A stretch of DNA of 64,000 bases, from the NCBI GenBank assembly GCA_048884965.1, contig JBHLQH010000018.1, positions 1 through 64,000 of the forward strand, read 5' to 3'. This document shows positions 22,593 to 30,066 of the stretch, piece by piece (position 1 is the first letter of the stretch; every line of letters starts with the position of its first letter). The stretch is from Candidatus Thorarchaeota archaeon. Lineage in GTDB: Archaea; Asgardarchaeota; Thorarchaeia; Thorarchaeales; Thorarchaeaceae. A program made the translations under genes and the position numbers. The notes beneath the pieces are model-generated. The model saw only the letters and a list, made by a program, of their open reading frames with translations, had not been told where the DNA came from and ran no database searches.

Positions 22593-24893
22593 CTATCTTC
22601 TAAGGTAGTAGCGTTTATTCATCATATTCCCAAGATGCGAGAATACGCGTCGCTCAATCATGGATACGGTATCCATCATGCGCAGGGCACGAGTAGTATT
22701 AGAGAAGACAGCATTCAGATATGGTTGCGCTTCCACAAGCTCGGAATCCTCAACCAAATGAAGATAGGAATCTGAAATCTTCAACAATCCCAACCAATCC
22801 TCTGCGAGCAGGAAAGAGTATTGTTCATTGTCCGACGCAATTTTAGATTCTTTGATTTCACTTCTGTCAATATAGGCAGAGTATTGATCTTCAAGAACTA
22901 GGGCGAATTTCATCAAGGACTTTGATAGAGATAGTGCAGTGGCTCGAATGAACTCAGCAGACTCACCATAGTCAGTATCGACCTCCTCTATCAGACCAAG
23001 TGCATGAGCTGATTTGTATAGACCTGTGGCAAGAGATGAAAAATCCTTGTTCTCATAGTAGGACCTAATTGTGTTCGCAAGGGCCGCCTGTCCTTTCCAA
23101 TACTGTGCTAGAAGAGGATCAATCCTAATAAGATCCTCATCGAAATCTTCACTGATTGAGGACACTACTTCCAGACTTATTGCCTCAAGATTTCGTTTCG
23201 CAGTAGCAAGCGCATTCACCAACTTTGAGGTGTCATCTAGCTGGGAATTCTCTTTCAGTAGATTAGCGGATCGTTTCTCCAATGCCTTCCAAGACCCAGT
23301 CAAATAAGGAACGACCAAAGATGCGCCATGGATAAAGATAGAGTCCTCTTGGGATCTCGCATCGATTAGCATCCGATCCACATCTTCTAACAACCTTGAC
23401 ATTCTTGGTGATAGCTCAATACCATGACGAATCGATAGCCATACTAGATTGTAAGTCGCAATAGCTATCTCAATGAAGGACCTGCTGTCCGTTGGAAAGA
23501 GGGGGACATATTGGGATAGGACACCTTGCAGCTCTTCAAGTGCTGCAGGTCTGCTGGGACCGGGAGTCCTCAAGAGAGAAAGCGCACGTCCGACCTTGCT
23601 ACTTAGCACCTCAAGTTCCCTTGCGTTCCCTTTCTTGAGAAGTGTCTCTCGCATCTCAATAGCTTTCTCGAAGGATTCGATCCCAAGTTCCCAATACTCA
23701 TCAGAGTCTGATGAAAGGCATATCCAACCAATTGCATTGTAAGAACGTGCAATGTCTTGCTCATGGTCCTGAGAATCTGAAAGGTTATTCAAAAGGTTTT
23801 GAGCACGATCCAAGTAATCCAAGCTTGTTGACACGTTACCATGTCCACGCATCAGTCCGTATGCGAACCCCAGTCCAGTGAGGCACTTAAAGAGCAGATG
23901 GGTCTGAGTATGGTCAGGATTCTCTATATTCTCAAAGATACTCAACGCTGCTTCCAGTCGTTTGATACCCTCTGGAACAGCTTCTCGCCACCCATTCGCG
24001 AGGATATTTGAGCCAATCACAAGATGCGCGAGACCAAGACCGTCCTTTGAACAATCCTCACAGTCGAGAATCATCTCAAATCTTTGAGCGGCTTCATCCG
24101 CAAACGCTCTGGCAACCTCGAAAGGGATGCTATCGTCCCTAGTCTCATTGATAGCTAGCTGAAGGGTGCAAGCTGCGAGTTTTATTGGATCCTTGATGAT
24201 TTCGGGATCATCTCGTAGCTTCTGGAGAGTATCACGCGATTCCTTGTAGAGTCCGATTTCAGTGAGTACTGATGCTTCATCAAGCGTGATATCAAATGCT
24301 AAATCGTCAAGTCCCTCATCTCGTGCCATGGTCATTAGCCGATTCAGGATCGCCTCTGAGCAATCGAAAGCACCTGCTTCTGAGAGCTTTGTCGTAAGAT
24401 AATGTGCCTCGTAAATCGCCATTTTGGTGGAAGCATCATGTCCACGCGTATATATCCCATCGAGCGTTGCTAGGACTTCATCTGTCAAGAAGGGAAGCAG
24501 GGGCCGTAGATTAAGCTCAATCGCATCGATCATTGCCTGAATCAATTCACCATGTACATCAAGCAGACGCGGTAACGCCTCAAGGTCAGGTATAAGCTCA
24601 CACTCTGCAATTACATGAACCGTATTGTACCGGGCGTCGAGGAGCATCAGCATCTTTCGTAGCGCGTCATCCTTATCAAAGGAGAGTCGAACGGAGAGCT
24701 CAGTAAGTTTAGCACTCGCCAGTCCGGGGCGTCGTAAGATAATCTCTTCGATAGCACGGGCCACATGAAAGTAGAGAGTTGAATCCTTCTCATTTGCGAT
24801 AGCGAGATTCTGAATTGTAGATAGACCGTCGTCGAGGGACAGAGAAGCATATAGAATTTCTCTCAATGCGGCTTTTAGTGCGGATTCCACCAT
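22593..24893 (-). CDS. Large TPR-like alpha-solenoid protein
   Basis: All-helical; TPR-like units such as IARSYNAIGWI...FEKAIEMRE and CLTGLGFAYG...YLDRA. Confidence 0.65.
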   Translation of the reverse strand: MVESALKAALREILYASLSLDDGLSTIQNLAIANEKDSTLYFHVARAIEEIILRRPGLASAKLTELSVRLSFDKDDALRKMLMLLDARYNTVHVIAECELIPDLEALPRLLDVHGELIQAMIDAIELNLRPLLPFLTDEVLATLDGIYTRGHDASTKMAIYEAHYLTTKLSEAGAFDCSEAILNRLMTMARDEGLDDLAFDITLDEASVLTEIGLYKESRDTLQKLRDDPEIIKDPIKLAACTLQLAINETRDDSIPFEVARAFADEAAQRFEMILDCEDCSKDGLGLAHLVIGSNILANGWREAVPEGIKRLEAALSIFENIENPDHTQTHLLFKCLTGLGFAYGLMRGHGNVSTSLDYLDRAQNLLNNLSDSQDHEQDIARSYNAIGWICLSSDSDEYWELGIESFEKAIEMRETLLKKGNARELEVLSSKVGRALSLLRTPGPSRPAALEELQGVLSQYVPLFPTDSRSFIEIAIATYNLVWLSIRHGIELSPRMSRLLEDVDRMLIDARSQEDSIFIHGASLVVPYLTGSWKALEKRSANLLKENSQLDDTSKLVNALATAKRNLEAISLEVVSSISEDFDEDLIRIDPLLAQYWKGQAALANTIRSYYENKDFSSLATGLYKSAHALGLIEEVDTDYGESAEFIRATALSLSKSLMKFALVLEDQYSAYIDRSEIKESKIASDNEQYSFLLAEDWLGLLKISDSYLHLVEDSELVEAQPYLNAVFSNTTRALRMMDTVSMIERRVFSHLGNMMNKRYYLRR

Positions 24894-24964: not shown

Positions 24965-25675
24965 TTAGGAGATAGTGAAATCATGCCAAGTTCGAGAAGT
25001 ATCACTACCACGCATTCGTTCCATGCGAAGATTGTGAGCAGGTTTCTCCCCACTATCATCGATCTTGAAACGGAGTACTGCATCGGCCAGATAGGAGAAC
25101 GTTGCATAGGTCTTTTCCTCATGAACTCCATCCTCAAGAATGAACATTATACTATGGGACCCTTGTTTTATCCTACCACTTATCCGTTGTATCGCACGGG
25201 GCATGGTTTCAGGATTGGAATGAAGAATCAGTGTGGACAGACTATCGATGACGATTCGCGCTACGACGAGCTTCTCCAATACCTCGGATAGGACTATGCC
25301 TAGCTCTGATACATCATCAACTTTGGAGAGAGACCTTGCTGACCCTGTCCGAGGAGCACCCATCCGCTCCGAATAGCCATCGATGAAGACGAATTTTCCT
25401 TCCTTCTCGTACTCATCAATGTTCCAACCATAACGAGCCATATCATTCCGAATCACGCGAGGGGATACATCTGTCGTGACAAATACAGCAGGAAAGCCAA
25501 GAGCGATTCCTTCAGCTAGAAAAGATTCTGCATACGTTGTCTTTCCAGAACCGAGCGGACCAAGAAGCATGAAAGATAGTTGAGTGAGTTGACCAAAATC
25601 CACAAGGTCTCCAATCATTGGATGAACCTTTGCAGGCTTCCGTGTTTCCGAACGGAAGACTTTCTTTTCACTCAA
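24965..25675 (-). CDS. Single-domain KaiC/RecA-family ATPase with degenerate catalytic Glu pair
   Basis: GPLGSGKT Walker A, VTTD instead of TxEE, IVIDSLS, FSYLAD, RMRG. Confidence 0.85.
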   Translation of the reverse strand: MSEKKVFRSETRKPAKVHPMIGDLVDFGQLTQLSFMLLGPLGSGKTTYAESFLAEGIALGFPAVFVTTDVSPRVIRNDMARYGWNIDEYEKEGKFVFIDGYSERMGAPRTGSARSLSKVDDVSELGIVLSEVLEKLVVARIVIDSLSTLILHSNPETMPRAIQRISGRIKQGSHSIMFILEDGVHEEKTYATFSYLADAVLRFKIDDSGEKPAHNLRMERMRGSDTSRTWHDFTIS

Positions 25676-25698
25676 TTATTACGCCTCACTAGACTTTC

Positions 25699-26445
25699 TT
25701 AATGACCGGGAGTGATCTCGCCAGGCCATACACGAATCCCTTCATCAGTGATTCTCATCGAATGGATTCTTGAGCTATGTTTTGATCCTCGAAGCTTGAG
25801 AATCTCAATGGATCGTGAACGTGAAGTATCACTGATTTTCTCGTTGTACAGTACCACGACACCCGAAGCGAGAAAAGCCTCAATGTCGAACACGCCCAGT
25901 CCAGAATCTTGGGCGGGTATCTCACTTGTCAGGAGAAGGGTTGCACCACTACGTGTAATATTGGCAGCCAGCTTAAAGAATTCCTCTCTTAGAATATCCC
26001 TACTTCGGAACTTGTACGCCATTATTGAAAGAGTATCAATTACAACACGTTTTGCGCCAACTTTTTTGATATGACTCATTATGATTGCCTCTAACCCTGA
26101 AAGATCAAAGCTGGGATATTCTCCAATCTTCACACGGGCAATCTCCCGAGAAGGAGAAAGGTCTGCAATAGAAAGTAATCCCTTCTCAATCAGGGAGTCC
26201 AAATCCATATTGAAGCGTAACATATTCCTCTTTATCGCTAGGGGGGATTCCTCTAGAGTCACCAGCACTCCGGGTTCATTATACATGGCAGCACCATTGT
26301 AAAGGAATTGGTTGGCAAGGATTGTCTTACCAGTACCAGCTTTTCCAGCAACGAGTATTGTGTCACCTCTTGGAAAGCCACCTTCAATGAGATCATCCAA
26401 GCCTGGAATCCCAGTCTTAACCCGGTCAATTTCATAATTGCTCAC
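25699..26445 (-). CDS. Single-domain KaiC-family ATPase (CI-like)
   Basis: TGIPGLD...GGFP, GKAGTGKT, QFLYNG, VTLEESP, VVIDTLS, EILKLRGSKH. Confidence 0.9.
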   Translation of the reverse strand: MSNYEIDRVKTGIPGLDDLIEGGFPRGDTILVAGKAGTGKTILANQFLYNGAAMYNEPGVLVTLEESPLAIKRNMLRFNMDLDSLIEKGLLSIADLSPSREIARVKIGEYPSFDLSGLEAIIMSHIKKVGAKRVVIDTLSIMAYKFRSRDILREEFFKLAANITRSGATLLLTSEIPAQDSGLGVFDIEAFLASGVVVLYNEKISDTSRSRSIEILKLRGSKHSSRIHSMRITDEGIRVWPGEITPGH

Positions 26446-26768
26446 ATTTCATACCCCTTTTTCGATACCTTGTATCCCAGTATCATCTTCATTATCATCT
26501 CCGGTTCAGGAATACCTGTGACGGAAACGCCTCCTATCATGATCGTTGGCAATGCGAATACACCATATTCCTCAGCAGATTCAGGATTCTCAGATACATT
26601 GATAATAGTTAGCTTGAATGCGCTTTCTCCAAAATCCCGAATAGTCTCCCTTACTACTTCCTCAGCTCGTGGGCAGAACGCGCAAGTGTCTGATTTGAAC
26701 AGGACTATCTCTACGAGAGAGTCATCCTCATCAGCATCTTTAGTGCTTGAGTCTAACTCTTCGTCCAC
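26442..26768 (-). CDS. Thioredoxin-fold CxxC protein (archaeal Trx / KaiB-like)
   Basis: CAFCP and INVSENPESAEEYGVFALPT; stop codon overlaps the KaiC start (GTGA). Confidence 0.85.
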   Translation of the reverse strand: MDEELDSSTKDADEDDSLVEIVLFKSDTCAFCPRAEEVVRETIRDFGESAFKLTIINVSENPESAEEYGVFALPTIMIGGVSVTGIPEPEMIMKMILGYKVSKKGYEM

Positions 26769-26855: not shown

Positions 26856-27242
26856 TTACTTTCTATAGCCCAAGACTTTGCGGATATTCGTTGAGGCCTT
26901 GCCTATCGCACGTGCATGATATCTTACTTGCTTCGGCATGATAGCAGCAAGAATAAGACCCTGCTTGTCCTGCGATGCGATCTTCCGAAAGACTGCCTTA
27001 CCTGCATAACAACGCACAGAGATGTCCTTGATAGCACCGAGCTTGAGCTCATTCCTTACTCGCTCAACTGTATCGGCAATAAAGCCAGACATTGCAGCAA
27101 CAACATCAGGGTGTGTCGTTGGGGAAACATCAGATGCGATCAGGAATCCATCATCCCTCGCGAGAACTGAGGCATAGAAGCCACCTTCCTTGTTCATAGT
27201 TTCCAAAATTGTTACCAAAGAACGGTAATCCGGTCGCTCCAT
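26856..27242 (-). CDS. Roadblock/LC7 (MglB-like) protein
   Basis: ASVLARDDGFLIAS, VVAAMS, ELKLG pattern. Confidence 0.85.
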   Translation of the reverse strand: MERPDYRSLVTILETMNKEGGFYASVLARDDGFLIASDVSPTTHPDVVAAMSGFIADTVERVRNELKLGAIKDISVRCYAGKAVFRKIASQDKQGLILAAIMPKQVRYHARAIGKASTNIRKVLGYRK

Positions 27243-27387
27243 ATGTAGTCTCCATCCTATGACGTCACTACTGAATCACAGCAGTTCCCTATTAAATAAT
27301 ATCTCAGTGTACTCTATGCCCATGGGATACAGTGACAGTAGGTTTTTAGGTGATATAGCTCTCACATTCCAGTGGAGATGTCATACC

Positions 27388-27921
27388 GTGCCCGTAGAAT
27401 ACCGCTTCAAAGTGGTGATGCTTGGAGATGGTGCTGTCGGAAAGACTGCACTCACAACTCGCTTCACTCAGGAGTTCTTTGATGCAGATTACAAACGGAC
27501 AATTGGGTCAGACTTTGCCATCAAAAAGCTGGAGATACCAGAAATTGATGCAAACGTTACATTGCAGGTATGGGATCTTGCAGGACAGCCACGCTTCGAG
27601 GTGGTCAGGCAAGGATTCTATAGGGGGGCTCGCGGAGGTCTCCTAGTATACGATGTCACTCGAAGGAGAACGTTCCTGAATATCCAGAACTGGAAGGATG
27701 AAGCATTCAAGAATCTGACTCGAGATATTCCTCTAGTCGTGGTCGCAAACAAAGTTGACCTTGATGATAGTAGAATCGTTTCAGAGGAAGAAGGCAGACA
27801 ATGGGCCGAGAAATATGGTCATCTCTATGTAGAATCAAGTGCCCTTACAGGAGTGAATGTGGAAGAAGCCTACGTTACCTTGTGTACGACTATGATTAAT
27901 GAGTCCAAGACCAGAACCTAG
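27388..27921 (+). CDS. Rab-like small GTPase
   Basis: GDGAVGKT, TIGSDF, WDLAGQ, NKVD, ESSA; start set at GTG 27388 behind a GGAG SD; no C-terminal Cys. Confidence 0.92.
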   Translation: MPVEYRFKVVMLGDGAVGKTALTTRFTQEFFDADYKRTIGSDFAIKKLEIPEIDANVTLQVWDLAGQPRFEVVRQGFYRGARGGLLVYDVTRRRTFLNIQNWKDEAFKNLTRDIPLVVVANKVDLDDSRIVSEEEGRQWAEKYGHLYVESSALTGVNVEEAYVTLCTTMINESKTRT

Positions 27922-29057
27922 GTAACCTTTCGTACTGCTCCTTTTAGTAGCCCTAACGCCTTCTTGCATTGCCAGTTGACATAGAATAGACGCTTGTCTC
28001 GAAGTACTTCAGCATCATAGTTCGAAACCAACGATTCGTATCTTGCGATGAATTCTTCTTTTCTCCCTTCGGACGGATCGGATTCGATTTCTTGAAGGAG
28101 ACTCTGAAATGGCTCAAGTATGGCATTGAGTTCAGCAACTTCCCAGCGGACTATCGATCCAGTCCCATCCGCCGTAAGGAATGCAAGTTGGTCTGGGTAC
28201 CACTCAATCCCATCGATTTCGCTTGGAGCGACTCCTTCACCTTGAATAGATCTCGTTTCAAGGTCCCACACAAAGATGTCCTTATCAGCTGAGCCAGAGG
28301 CAAGGTATCTATCATCGTGACTGAATGCAACTGCACGCACTTCCTCATTATGTGCCTGTAATCTTTCATCTATCCTCAGAGGTCTATCAGTATTCCATAG
28401 GACTATCGTATTATCTGATGAGGCGGATGCAAGAAGGTGTCCGCTGTTGGAAAAACGAACAGCTTGTACTGCAGTCCGATGCTCTTCGTGGACTGACAGT
28501 GCCTTGGCTGCGTATGGGTCCCACTCCCGTACTGTTGAATCGACGGAGGATGACACAATGCGATTGTCTTGCGGATCCCAGTCAACACTAAGAACGTAGA
28601 GGGAGTGACCTTTCAAATGATGCATTTGCTTCAGATTGTCAACATCCCATACTATCAATGTCGTATCACCGCTCCCTGACACCAGATAATTCCCATCTGG
28701 AGAGAACGCAACAGATAGAACAGGATAGGTATGACCTTCCAAGGTGGCAAGACAAGAACCATGCCGAATATCCCAGAGCTTTACTACTCGTCCCACGCTG
28801 CCTGTAGCAAGTATGTCCCCCTTTGGACTGAAAGCCATGGATGTACAAAGTACATCATCTTGAATCCTCTGCATCTCCTCACAATTACGAGCGTCATACA
28901 GACGGATGGTTCGATCCTGAAGGGCTGCAGCTATCATCCTACCTACGCTGTTCATGGCAAATCTTCGTGTAATATCGCCGCCCGATTCAGCTTCTGGTTT
29001 CAGTGTTTCAGGCTTGAGAAATAAGGATAGTTCTTTCGACTCCATTTGCCTCACCAT
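27918..29057 (-). CDS. WD40-repeat beta-propeller with short helical C-terminus
   Basis: Multiple GH...V..VAFS..G..L.SGS.D.T..VWD repeats. Confidence 0.92.
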   Translation of the reverse strand: MVRQMESKELSLFLKPETLKPEAESGGDITRRFAMNSVGRMIAAALQDRTIRLYDARNCEEMQRIQDDVLCTSMAFSPKGDILATGSVGRVVKLWDIRHGSCLATLEGHTYPVLSVAFSPDGNYLVSGSGDTTLIVWDVDNLKQMHHLKGHSLYVLSVDWDPQDNRIVSSSVDSTVREWDPYAAKALSVHEEHRTAVQAVRFSNSGHLLASASSDNTIVLWNTDRPLRIDERLQAHNEEVRAVAFSHDDRYLASGSADKDIFVWDLETRSIQGEGVAPSEIDGIEWYPDQLAFLTADGTGSIVRWEVAELNAILEPFQSLLQEIESDPSEGRKEEFIARYESLVSNYDAEVLRDKRLFYVNWQCKKALGLLKGAVRKVT

Positions 29058-29499: not shown

Positions 29500-30066
29500 T
29501 TATGCTAGACCGCCAGCCTCCAATATTTTAATGGCAAGCTCTAAGAAAGCCGCTTCAACGTTCTTGCCTGTCTTTGCCGAGGTCTCAAGGTATGATGCGT
29601 GTGTGCCCATCTTTACGATACTGTCAGCAAGTTTCTGGCCTTCTTCTGTGGTCACGATTGTCTGTTTCATTACAGGATTGTCTTGGAACTGATCTCTCAA
29701 ATCGGTCTTGTTTCCAATGAGAACAACGGGAATCTTCTTCCCAGCGTTCGTCCAAGCCTCTTCCAGCCAATCCTTGATGTTATCGAAGGATGAACGCTCG
29801 ACAGTAGAGAAGACTGCCATTGCGCCTTGAGCACCTTTGTAGAAGGTTGAGCGCACATTCTTGAAGTGCTCTTGACCAGCCAGATCCCAAATCTGGATGC
29901 TCACGTCATGACCACCTGCCAATTGCATCTTCTTTACGGCAAAGTCAGCTCCAATGGTGATCTGGTAATGGGCCTTGAAGCCTTCACCCATATACGTACG
30001 TCTCAAGCTCGTCTTTCCGACTGACCCATCGCCCATGAGTACAACTTTGAAGAGGGCAGTTACCAT
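29500..30066 (-). CDS. Rab-like small GTPase with post-G4 insertion
   Basis: GDGSVGKT, TIGADF, WDLAGQE, NKTD, ETSAK. Confidence 0.92.
   Translation of the reverse strand: MVTALFKVVLMGDGSVGKTSLRRTYMGEGFKAHYQITIGADFAVKKMQLAGGHDVSIQIWDLAGQEHFKNVRSTFYKGAQGAMAVFSTVERSSFDNIKDWLEEAWTNAGKKIPVVLIGNKTDLRDQFQDNPVMKQTIVTTEEGQKLADSIVKMGTHASYLETSAKTGKNVEAAFLELAIKILEAGGLA

Follow-up and report, generated by a model that had tools for sequence, protein, structure and literature searches.

KaiB is a textbook metamorphic protein that binds KaiC only in its thioredoxin-like fold. The footprint on KaiC in the complex 5JWO, as the literature describes it, comprises the B-loop and residues Q154 and Y155 of helix α6, with F122 and D123 being required for binding, and in cyanobacterial KaiC the accessibility of the B-loop depends on ATP hydrolysis by the CI domain. 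A survey of Kai proteins found KaiB only alongside full-length KaiC, and bacterial species with KaiCs of about 250 residues, a form that occurs mainly in Archaea, had no KaiB (PMC5520375). It has been proposed that single-domain archaeal KaiC-like ATPases act as hubs of signalling (Makarova, Galperin and Koonin 2017, as cited in PMC5847659), and inactivated KaiC (iKaiC) is a category named in PMC5847659 after the same work. In the literature consulted, where Makarova 2017 is represented by the citing paper, no dedicated thioredoxin partner is described for single-domain archaeal KaiCs, and no publication describing a module of the kind reported below was found.

Here we describe a thioredoxin gene (trx) that overlaps the first of two KaiC-family genes (kaiC1 and kaiC2) in a Thorarchaeota genome. 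We read the locus as the form, specific to Thorarchaeia, of a kind of Asgard operon that pairs a single-domain KaiC ATPase with a small, co-made thioredoxin-fold protein as its bound partner, and we give this reading a probability of roughly 0.55.

Organization and conservation of the locus

The window, that is, the whole stretch of 64,000 nucleotides that was analysed, carries three co-oriented genes on its minus strand: trx (26442..26768; 108 residues, GTG start), encoding a protein with a thioredoxin core; kaiC1 (25699..26445; 248 residues, GTG start), encoding a KaiC-family ATPase of one domain whose catalytic set is intact; and kaiC2 (24965..25675; 236 residues, TTG start), encoding a divergent KaiC paralogue. 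Direct reading of the sequence shows that the trx stop codon TGA and the kaiC1 start codon GTG share the tetranucleotide GTGA (26442..26445, minus strand), and that kaiC1 and kaiC2 are spaced by 23 nt. Orientation, overlap and gap are thus as given in an earlier note on this DNA, in which the three genes had been picked out from the sequence alone. Each motif quoted in that note (QFLYNG, EPGVLVTLEESP, EILKLRG, DLSPSREIARVKIGEYPSFDLSGL, VTTD, TFSYLAD, CAFC and FKLTIINVSENPESAEEYGVFALPT) was found, and the reference sequences that it used are accurate: the CI B-loop and the CII segment histitd match PDB alignments, and the KaiB segment (running from yalkvid to latptl) is present in a real cyanobacterial KaiB from a kaiABC locus.

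Upstream of trx, and separated from it by 87 nt that include a T7 run, lies a gene for a Roadblock/LC7-like protein (26856..27242, minus strand), with a weak match of 16.8 bits to PF03259. Wherever a locus extends that far, this gene lies upstream of trx, also in the sister family (35% identity); parted from trx by the T-run, it may belong to the unit of the GTPase gene that follows. The latter (27259..27921, plus strand; PF00071, 171 bits) is divergently transcribed and encodes a Rab-like GTPase which, judged by its match to PDB entry 7ezb, 'Thorarchaeota Rab' (296 bits, E 1e-87, residues 44–217), is the orthologue of the crystallised Thorarchaeota Rab. Downstream of kaiC2 lies a gene for a 766-residue helical-repeat protein (22593..24893, minus strand), which has no Pfam match and is described as TPR-like from language-model features that point to TPR clusters (score 0.95); its downstream position is kept in the family of the window. 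A scan for sigma-70 promoters and terminators, which is ill-suited to archaea, gave signals at background level only.

The three genes are each single-copy, and their range is one Asgard order comprising two GTDB families. At E<=1e-55, KaiC1 orthologues are present in 71 of the 85 genomes of the GTDB family of the window, in the only genome of the sister family (1/1) and in none of the remaining Asgard genomes (0/314); the orthologues of KaiC2 and Trx cover the same taxonomic range. The best 120 near-length homologues of KaiC1 are all Thorarchaeota orthologues, a set that is uninformative on more distant relatives. The order Roadblock-trx-kaiC1-kaiC2-TPR-like is kept, where the contig allows, in 35 of 35 other genomes inspected, which bears out the expected linkage of trx, kaiC1 and kaiC2 in relatives. 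Of 22 other loci read, 21 have a trx-kaiC1 junction that ranges from an 8-nt overlap to a 7-nt gap, the single exception being a locus with an uncertain start call, and both the adjacency and the closeness of stop and start are kept across the two families and 17 genera. Because the orthologues are restricted to one order, the gene order is kept and the trx-kaiC1 junction is conserved, the locus is not a product of chance.

The thioredoxin

Trx consists of a disordered, acidic N-terminal tail (residues 1–18), a thioredoxin core (residues 19–98) and a basic C-terminal tail. It passes the cut-off of PF13192 (Thioredoxin_3; 38 bits, cut-off 24.8), and its best NCBIfam match is to the MJ0307-type model TIGR00411, with 60.6 bits falling short of the equivalog cut-off of 92.75. 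Therefore, Trx is a member of Thioredoxin_3 and merely a relative of the MJ0307 equivalog. The KaiB family model PF07689 matches residues 43–76 only, with 25.4 bits that lie below the gathering threshold of 27, and sub-threshold matches to this model also occur in 10 control genomes, including those of E. coli and B. subtilis and several that have no KaiB; Synechococcus alone reaches the threshold. The best sequence match in the PDB is 1fo5 (54 bits, E 1e-13), and the top 50 Foldseek matches are nearly all thioredoxins or thioredoxin-fold proteins. KaiB is absent from the top 60 PDB sequence matches and from the top 50 fold matches, and the AF2 model of Trx has thioredoxin topology only. When the Trx profile is aligned directly to real KaiB, hhalign returns a probability of 92.5% over 49 columns.

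In the active site C29-A30-F31-C32 (codons at 26673..26684, minus strand), C29, F31 and C32 are invariant among orthologues and A30 is found in 30 of 33; the cis-proline site P74-T75 is also invariant. By these sequence features Trx is an MJ0307/Thioredoxin_3-type predicted oxidoreductase. The earlier note had called it KaiB-like, a label that the family, fold and feature searches and the Pfam threshold speak against, while granting that it equally resembles ordinary archaeal thioredoxins, which sequence, fold and features all confirm. As a protein that the searches portray as an ordinary small archaeal thioredoxin, Trx could have clients elsewhere.

The searches return thioredoxin or glutaredoxin in every case and never KaiB, and the KaiB model finds sub-threshold matches even in genomes without KaiB, as would be expected if Trx were an ordinary thioredoxin for housekeeping or stress, co-transcribed with the two KaiC-like ATPases yet uncoupled from them both physically and functionally. 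This explanation is improbable in view of the adjacency and stop-start overlap that persist over two families and 17 genera, and of the occurrence of this type of Trx only where KaiC1 and KaiC2 occur. Moreover, thioredoxin-fold proteins, some of them cysteine-free, occupy the same slot in four other lineages, and the co-folding result for Trx and KaiC1 lies well above its controls (see below).

KaiC1

KaiC1 matches PF06745 with 229.4 bits (cut-off 26.6). Its sequence identity to cyanobacterial CI is 40% (169 bits), compared with 27% (72 bits) to CII, in agreement with the closeness to CI that had been noticed earlier. The features typical of CI are present, namely Walker A, the catalytic glutamate pair, the arginine finger and a B-loop with the F-D pair, and orthologues show little or no variation at Walker A, E65-E66, D137, K217 and R219. 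The B-loop (residues 95–118, DLSPSREIARVKIGEYPSFDLSGL; codons at 26092..26163, minus strand), assigned by alignment to that of CI, is four residues longer than its CI counterpart. Within it, Y110–S116 and L118 are invariant in a 23-row alignment, and F113 and D114 align with F122 and D123 of the T. elongatus protein, which are required for the binding of both KaiB and SasA. The insertion at the B-loop position that the earlier note reported is thus real and retains the residues needed for KaiB and SasA binding. At the position of S431/T432 the alignment has A-F and hence no phospho-acceptor, again as first read.

Against the circadian clock KaiC models TIGR02655 and NF006799, KaiC1 scores 166 and 206 bits and KaiC2 44 and 67 bits, where the cut-offs are 546 and 408; for both proteins only the CI half of the models is matched. 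In the trees, KaiC1 is placed among single-domain proteins, outside the CI clade of the double-domain KaiCs (support 98/97). KaiC1 is presumably a working ATPase that forms a hexamer like other single-domain KaiCs. P0121, a protein considered as a fused KaiC1-KaiC2, was rejected, its high total score being the sum of two domains that are each about 40% identical to KaiC1.

KaiC2 and its relation to CII

KaiC2 also passes PF06745 (116.3 bits, cut-off 26.6) and scores 37.8 bits against DUF7504. Walker A, D144, R217, R220 and R222 are invariant among orthologues. The segment TTDVSPR, invariant in 36 of 36 orthologue rows, corresponds in the alignment to the CI segment (V)TFEE(S)P. T67-T68-D69-V70 (codons at 25466..25477, minus strand) thus stand where CI has its catalytic F-E-E, and every orthologue has Asp-Val instead of the glutamate pair, with Walker A and the Walker B aspartate kept. 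The altered catalytic pair and the preserved arginine finger reported in the earlier note are therefore general features of the KaiC2 orthologues. With regard to loss of ATPase catalytic residues, the trait looked for in an iKaiC, KaiC2 has Asp-Val for the glutamate pair yet keeps Walker A, the Walker B aspartate and three arginines; it probably binds nucleotide and is catalytically degenerate.

The earlier note had taken KaiC1 and KaiC2 for the CI-like and CII-like parts of a split KaiC. A true split of this kind, acting as a phosphorylation-based proto-clock with Trx as the KaiB analogue, would account for the resemblance of KaiC1 to CI and for the gene order trx-kaiC, which mirrors kaiB-kaiC. 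The scores of KaiC2 are difficult to reconcile with it: 82 bits to the single-domain PH0284, which is the best structure match, 51.9 bits to CI and 19.1 bits to CII. KaiC2 also has an insert at the B-loop position that is absent from CII, and the supposed kinase half has Asp and Val in place of the glutamate pair. By score, KaiC2 would thus be of the CI or single-domain type, not of the CII type. In both trees, neither KaiC1 nor KaiC2 falls within the supported clades of CI and CII (support for CII of 99 and 100/99), and the stem branch of KaiC2 is very long, with 1.95 changes per site. The full domain tree has 122 rows; AU tests on a 43-row set rejected none of three constrained groupings (0/3), including KaiC2 with CII (p 0.33) and KaiC1 with CI (p 0.37), which leaves the split some room. 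The Ser-Tyr site pointed out in the earlier note does align with S431-T432, as Ser194-Tyr195, but it is not invariant: Ser194 is replaced by alanine in one genus (that of genome G324; A-Y) and Tyr195 by phenylalanine in the sister family (S-F).

Because KaiC2 scores as a CI or single-domain type and the Ser-Tyr site varies, a split into CI and CII is unsupported, and we regard it as very improbable. In other Asgard families, no second KaiC follows the partner-KaiC pair within the 0.4–0.8 kb examined downstream; this is also at odds with a split, and KaiC2 therefore looks like a later addition to a partner-KaiC pair. Tandem single-domain KaiC genes that end in a degenerate copy of the DUF7504 type are also found elsewhere.

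Predicted docking of Trx on the KaiC1 B-loop

Co-folding of Trx with KaiC1 gave an ipSAE of 0.74, compared with 0.42 for the best control, an unrelated one; 58 of 80 solved complexes attain this mark, as do 2 of 110 mismatched pairs, and the pass of Trx and KaiC1 may reflect the model's memory of the solved KaiB-CI and SasA-CI complexes. In three runs, at least 96% of the contacts were common, and the pLDDT of the partner was 80. The modelled interface comprises residues 94–124, 142 and 145–146 of KaiC1, with the B-loop at its core, and residues 24–35, 58–75 and 80–95 of Trx, including the active-site residues 28–31. The KaiC1 footprint, formed by the B-loop and helix α6, matches that of 5JWO as described in the literature. 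Binding of Trx to the KaiC1 B-loop, a point on which the earlier note had staked its proposal, is thus predicted by the model.

On this basis, Trx would dock by its active-site face, formed by C-A-F-C, the cis-proline loop and a G-I-P-E-P loop, onto the exposed B-loop segment F113-D114-L115-S116-G117-L118 and helix α6 of KaiC1. Its predicted footprint would be that which fold-switched KaiB and SasA's thioredoxin-like domain occupy on CI.

Thioredoxin-fold partners in other Asgard lineages

Independently of the co-folding, thioredoxin-fold proteins are found in the slot before KaiC in four other lineages, some of these proteins without cysteines. In two Asgard families (f15, 5/5 genomes; f16, 6/6), the gene immediately upstream of that for a single-domain KaiC encodes a small protein without cysteines; these proteins are borderline between KaiB (20–26 bits) and Thioredoxin_3 (23–28 bits). 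In a third family (f4) and one metagenomic relative, the slot holds a CGFC thioredoxin, and a metagenomic double-domain KaiC has a cysteine-free homologue in the same upstream position. A protein homology search with one cysteine-free partner, P0412, found only a near-copy of itself. The cysteine-free partners indicate that the partnership is independent of the CxxC motif.

All partnered KaiCs have the loop motif F-x-L-x-x-L in common, and none of five relatives without the motif has a thioredoxin-fold neighbour. Motif and partner co-occur in about a dozen lineages, most of which had been seen before the motif was defined; for P0182, the loop motif led to the prediction of a partner ahead of any reading of the gene context, which does contain a thioredoxin. 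A GTPase gene follows the partner-KaiC pair in f4 (locus L060) and at locus L061, and the latter also has a TPR protein, neighbours that recur in the Thorarchaeota cluster as its Rab-like GTPase and TPR-like protein. BLASTP found no similarity between the Roadblock protein and the uncharacterized ORFs lying upstream of the f4 operon.

Redox state, ATPase cycle and output

No cysteine is present in KaiC1 or KaiC2 of the window. Since the conserved CxxC lies in the modelled interface and neither KaiC has a cysteine, we infer, and purely so, that the redox centre of Trx most likely sets docking through its thiol or disulfide state and does not reduce the ATPase. KaiC2 would probably co-assemble with KaiC1 as a regulatory subunit, and output would probably run through the Roadblock protein, the Rab-like GTPase and the TPR-like scaffold. 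Trx, KaiC1 and KaiC2 would then form a putative redox- and ATP-signalling module, and not a clock protein split in two.

The same interface can be read differently, with Trx as a disulfide reductase that is recruited or released by the KaiC ATPase and the B-loop as a pseudo-substrate in the Trx groove. It would then be for the KaiC1 ATPase cycle to set when Trx is free to reduce its clients, or to bring it to clients bound by KaiC. CxxC, cis-proline and the whole thioredoxin fold are strictly conserved, as for an active enzyme; the face by which thioredoxins canonically bind substrates lies within the modelled interface; and in cyanobacterial KaiC, access to the B-loop depends on CI ATP hydrolysis. 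A client is harder to name, as KaiC1 and KaiC2 lack cysteines and no conserved cysteine pair occurs in the proteins neighbouring Trx: the Roadblock protein has one nearly invariant cysteine, and in the 766-residue protein C392 is the only invariant one. The latter protein was considered as a Trx client and ruled out, since its CxxC at residues 278/281 is not conserved. Moreover, as cysteine-free partners fill the slot elsewhere among Asgard families, the pair is kept together by something other than catalysis. We consider this reductase scheme unlikely.

A wider evolutionary proposal is one that we hold only tentatively and think doubtful as it stands: the Asgard thioredoxin-KaiC pairs may be living relatives of the ancestral state of KaiB/SasA-CI, in which thiol-dependent docking of a redox-active thioredoxin onto a loop controlled by the ATPase feeds redox and energy status to a Rab-/Rag-like GTPase switch, with the cysteine-free lineages as a step towards KaiB. 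In the present locus, a CxxC thioredoxin shares an operon with a single-domain KaiC that is CI-like and has the KaiB-binding loop residues, and sister Asgard lineages add cysteine-free, KaiB-borderline proteins in the slot before KaiC. This series makes both the origin of KaiB-type regulators and the redox gating of a KaiC-family ATPase testable with a few recombinant proteins. The same holds for how archaeal KaiC 'hubs' communicate with the eukaryote-like small GTPases of Asgard archaea; for one of these, the adjacent Thor-Rab, a crystal structure is available.

Comparison with known systems

A precedent for non-catalytic docking of a thioredoxin is provided by T7 DNA polymerase, where the active-site face of thioredoxin binds an inserted loop in its reduced form only and the enzyme is not reduced. 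The entry 1T7P, in which E. coli thioredoxin forms a non-redox subunit in this polymerase, is represented among the fold matches of Trx (1t7p_B). The likeness lies in the modelled docking of the active-site face onto a loop of a nucleotide-handling enzyme; the partner enzymes are unrelated, however, and the thioredoxin in the polymerase is recruited across the host-virus boundary and does not come from a shared operon. All that the analogy shows is that redox-dependent, non-catalytic docking has a precedent.

The MJ0307 and MTH807 thioredoxins (1FO5, 1NHO) are the best sequence match and resemble Trx in size, fold, CxxC and cis-proline. Trx differs from them in scoring below the TIGR00411 cut-off of 92.75, in its charged N- and C-terminal tails, in the unusual C-A-F-C active site (A30 in 30/33) and in its obligate coupling to a KaiC gene.

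With the single-domain archaeal KaiCs (PH0186, PH0284, TIGR03877), KaiC1 and KaiC2 share the single-domain architecture, and each is grouped with single-domain proteins in the trees. KaiC1 stands apart in its nearness to CI and in keeping the KaiB-binding loop motif, which its nearest relatives lack.

A further close parallel would be the complexes of KaiB and SasA with CI (5JWO, 5JWQ, 6X61). In both systems, the gene for a KaiC-family ATPase directly follows that for a thioredoxin-fold protein of about 100 residues; on KaiC1, the modelled footprint covers the B-loop and α6 with the required F-D pair; the C-terminal half of the partner takes part in the (modelled) interface; and the Trx profile can be aligned to KaiB at the probability given above. 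In contrast to KaiB, Trx keeps CxxC and cis-proline, scores under the KaiB family threshold and is predicted to adopt the thioredoxin fold only, with no sign of the KaiB ground state. Likewise, KaiC1 differs from cyanobacterial KaiC in being a single domain without CII, phosphosites or A-loop, in a setting without KaiA, and the locus differs from cyanobacterial kai in the second, degenerate KaiC gene that follows kaiC1.

Gene organization and conservation

The minus strand of the window carries three genes in head-to-tail arrangement: trx (26442–26768, an ORF of 108 aa), kaiC1 (25699–26445, 248 aa, GTG start) and kaiC2 (24965–25675, 236 aa). Reading of the ORFs confirmed the three co-oriented genes of the earlier note, with the trx stop overlapping the kaiC1 start (GTGA) and 23 nt between kaiC1 and kaiC2, and every sequence motif cited there was found. 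Upstream of trx, separated from it by an 87-nt spacer with a T7 run, is a Roadblock/LC7-like gene (26856–27242). Downstream of kaiC2, on the same strand as the trio, is a gene for a 766-aa protein (22593–24893) for which a Pfam search gave no match; its language-model features suggest TPR repeats, and within the family it keeps its place downstream of kaiC2, with 42–70% identity.

The Rab-like GTPase encoded divergently on the plus strand (27259–27921) is orthologous to 'Thorarchaeota Rab', for which crystal structures exist (PDB codes 7ezb, 7ezd and 7eze; 296 bits, E 1e-87). The match to 7EZB begins at residue 44; the true start is therefore probably an internal Met rather than the first ATG of the ORF. 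Just past this GTPase are genes for a seven-bladed WD40 propeller (27918–29057, minus) and a second Rab-like GTPase (29500–30066, minus). These two and the Roadblock gene make up a group of eukaryote-signature proteins that surrounds the KaiC module.

Of the 85 genomes in the window's GTDB family, 71 have a KaiC1 orthologue (E≤1e-55), as does the single genome of the sister family; the other 314 Asgard genomes searched have none. KaiC2 and Trx have the same range, with only generic relatives (about 30–38% identity) elsewhere. The linkage of the three genes, on which the earlier proposal depended, proved durable: the order Roadblock-trx-kaiC1-kaiC2-766-aa protein is held wherever the contig extends, at 29 loci of the window's family and in six more distant genomes, and at 21 of 22 loci the trx-kaiC1 junction ranges from an 8-nt overlap to a 7-nt gap. 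No 766-aa protein was detected in the sister family. Cys29, Phe31, Cys32 and the cis-Pro pair Pro74-Thr75 are all invariant among Trx orthologues. Those of KaiC1 have intact Walker A, Glu65-Glu66, Asp137, Lys217 and Arg219, and in those of KaiC2 the Walker A motif, Asp144, Arg217, Arg220 and Arg222 are invariant.

KaiC1 and KaiC2

The earlier note read the two ATPases as a KaiC split into its CI and CII halves. KaiC1 (229 bits against the KaiC domain) is indeed close to CI. Among solved structures it is nearest to full-length KaiCs, matched with 179 bits over the CI half and 67 bits over the CII half, and its identity is 40% to cyanobacterial CI versus 27% to CII of the same protein. KaiC2 scores 116 bits against the KaiC domain and 38 bits against DUF7504; its best match among solved structures is the single-domain PH0284 (82 bits), compared with 52 bits for KaiC CI and 19 bits for CII.

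In a tree of 122 rows, built from single domains excised from single-, double- and triple-domain KaiCs, KaiC1 and KaiC2 fall among single-domain proteins in one clade (SH-aLRT 96), separate both from the CII clade (support 99) and from CI of the double-domain KaiCs. Both are also outside the CI (98/97) and CII (100/99) clades of a 43-row tree, where the KaiC2 stem measures 1.95 changes per site. AU tests rejected none of the groupings KaiC2 with CII (p 0.33), KaiC1 with CI (p 0.37) or KaiC1 with KaiC2 (p 0.22), so the tree alone cannot decide on a CI/CII split. KaiC2 has an insert at the B-loop position that is lacking in CII, and where other Asgard families have a related operon, no second KaiC was found in the 0.4–0.8 kb of downstream DNA examined. 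The profile scores, this insert and the lack of a second KaiC in that downstream stretch speak against a CII nature of KaiC2. Of two KaiC2 features remarked on previously, the altered catalytic pair stands (T-D-V in 36/36 rows), whereas the Ser-Tyr site varies: Ser194-Tyr195 occurs in 35 of 36 rows, but genome G324 has A-Y and the sister family S-F. We read KaiC2 from these comparisons as a fast-evolving, lineage-specific, catalytically degenerate paralogue.

The genome holds at least eight regions over the KaiC-domain cut-off. KaiC-like regions include C35:12863–13561, C61:2186–2905, C61:4818–5378 and C5:97825–98535; the C35 paralogue shares 37% identity with KaiC1 and clusters with other single-domain proteins, and the two C61 genes are at most 3 kb apart. 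Tandem single-domain KaiC genes with a DUF7504-type copy last also occur elsewhere. Two metagenome or MAG contigs (L046:4001–6095 and L047) carry three translationally coupled single-domain KaiC genes (235, 232 and 230 aa), the last being of the DUF7504/DUF7090 type, like KaiC2, which suggests that operons of an active plus a degenerate KaiC are a broader archaeal pattern.

Trx is an ordinary thioredoxin by family and fold

The proposed KaiB-like character of Trx fared less well than its thioredoxin character. Trx is over the cut-off for Thioredoxin_3 (38 bits), and its top NCBIfam match is the MJ0307-type thioredoxin model TIGR00411 (60.6 bits, yet under the equivalog cut-off). Its score for the KaiB model, 25.4 bits over residues 43–76 only, is under the cut-off of 27, which only Synechococcus cleared among the control genomes; ten more of these, including E. 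coli and B. subtilis, gave sub-threshold matches. Among solved structures, M. jannaschii thioredoxin 1FO5 comes closest (E 1e-13), and KaiB is absent from the top 60 PDB sequence matches. The AF2 model (pLDDT 82.7) displays the thioredoxin topology in its classic form; thioredoxins and other proteins of that fold account for nearly all of its 50 best fold matches, with no KaiB among them. Language-model features place Trx with Thioredoxin_3 and glutaredoxin clusters. Real cyanobacterial KaiB matches the Thorarchaeal Trx profile with a probability of 92.5% across 49 columns.

Predicted Trx-KaiC1 interface

Co-folding with orthologue alignments of Trx and KaiC1 placed Trx on the KaiC1 B-loop, as the earlier note had anticipated, with an ipSAE of 0.74 versus 0.42 for the best control; among 80 solved complexes 58 attain this mark, against 2 among 110 mismatched pairs. 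The three runs had at least 96% of contacts in common (partner pLDDT 80). Modelled contacts involve KaiC1 residues 94–124 (the B-loop, with Tyr110-Ser116 and Leu118 invariant in 23 rows), 142 and 145–146, and Trx residues 24–35 (including Cys29-Phe31), 58–75 (including the cis-Pro loop) and 80–95.

The CI B-loop is the docking site of KaiB and of SasA's thioredoxin-like domain, and substitutions of F122/D123 weaken both (bioRxiv 10.1101/2020.06.17.158394); binding requires prior ATP hydrolysis by CI (PMC6378743). KaiC1 Phe113/Asp114 align with F122/D123, and Lys145/Phe146 with Q154/Y155 of helix alpha6, which belongs with the B-loop to the footprint in 5JWO. Since these equivalents are contacted, the predicted interface reproduces the KaiB footprint on KaiC. 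Complexes of KaiB and SasA with KaiC are already solved, and the co-fold pass may thus be partly due to memory of them.

Thioredoxin-fold partners of KaiC in other lineages

Ranked by total score, the nearest relative outside Thorarchaeota is a double-domain KaiC (497 aa) from a metagenome; its N-domain loop reads EAFDLSGL. Just before it, with overlapping stop and start, is the gene for a 92-aa Cys-free protein, P0412 (gene pair at L041:1414–3185 and L042:1371–3142, metagenome contigs). P0412 is homologous to Thorarchaeal Trx (87% probability by hhalign, E 4e-7 by BLASTP) and scores weakly for KaiB and Thioredoxin_3 alike. Upstream of it are genes for a V4R protein and for a single KaiC of the DUF7504 type.

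A search of the phylum with P0412 found relatives in every genome of two other Asgard families, f15 (5/5) and f16 (6/6), each directly upstream of a single-domain KaiC (L049–L059). These partners are Cys-free, about 91–102 aa long by the shortest calls, and borderline between KaiB (20–26 bits) and Thioredoxin_3 (23–28 bits). In family f4, the one genome read (G004, L060) encodes a CGFC thioredoxin at this position, followed by KaiC and an Arf/Rag-like GTPase.

All partnered KaiCs share the loop motif F-x-L-x-x-L with cyanobacterial CI; five single-domain KaiC relatives without it have no thioredoxin-like neighbour. P0182, a metagenomic KaiC relative chosen solely for this motif ahead of reading its gene context, proved to lie in an operon (L061) encoding a 135-aa protein, a CGFC thioredoxin, KaiC, an Arf/Rag-like GTPase and a canonical TPR protein. 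The gene content of L060 (GTPase) and L061 (GTPase and TPR protein) echoes the Thorarchaeal cluster. Pairing of a thioredoxin-fold protein with the KaiC B-loop seems to be older and more widespread than the trio of Thorarchaeia.

Proposed mechanism

Because the partnership is kept in lineages without the cysteines, it would be structural in the first place. In Thorarchaeia, the CxxC with its invariant internal Phe is strictly kept within the modelled interface, and the window's KaiC1 and KaiC2 contain no cysteine; on these two grounds, the simplest reading is that Trx docking on KaiC1 depends on redox state. Reduced thioredoxin as the non-catalytic subunit of T7 DNA polymerase is a precedent for such docking. 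The main rival would have KaiC1 control Trx as an active reductase; however, no conserved cysteine pair in the neighbouring proteins backs a local Trx client. In the 766-aa protein, Cys392 alone is invariant and a CxxC at 278/281 is specific to the window. KaiC2 would probably join KaiC1 as a nucleotide-binding regulatory subunit, and the output is suggested by the GTPase and TPR proteins that recur as neighbours.

Full-text searches, which did not extend to the main 2017 survey of gene neighbourhoods around archaeal KaiC, turned up no description of a thioredoxin-KaiC operon and, for KaiC in Thorarchaeota, nothing more than mentions in passing. Judged from sequence comparison and modelling, the Thorarchaeal module is predicted to be a variation on the known docking of KaiB and SasA on KaiC.
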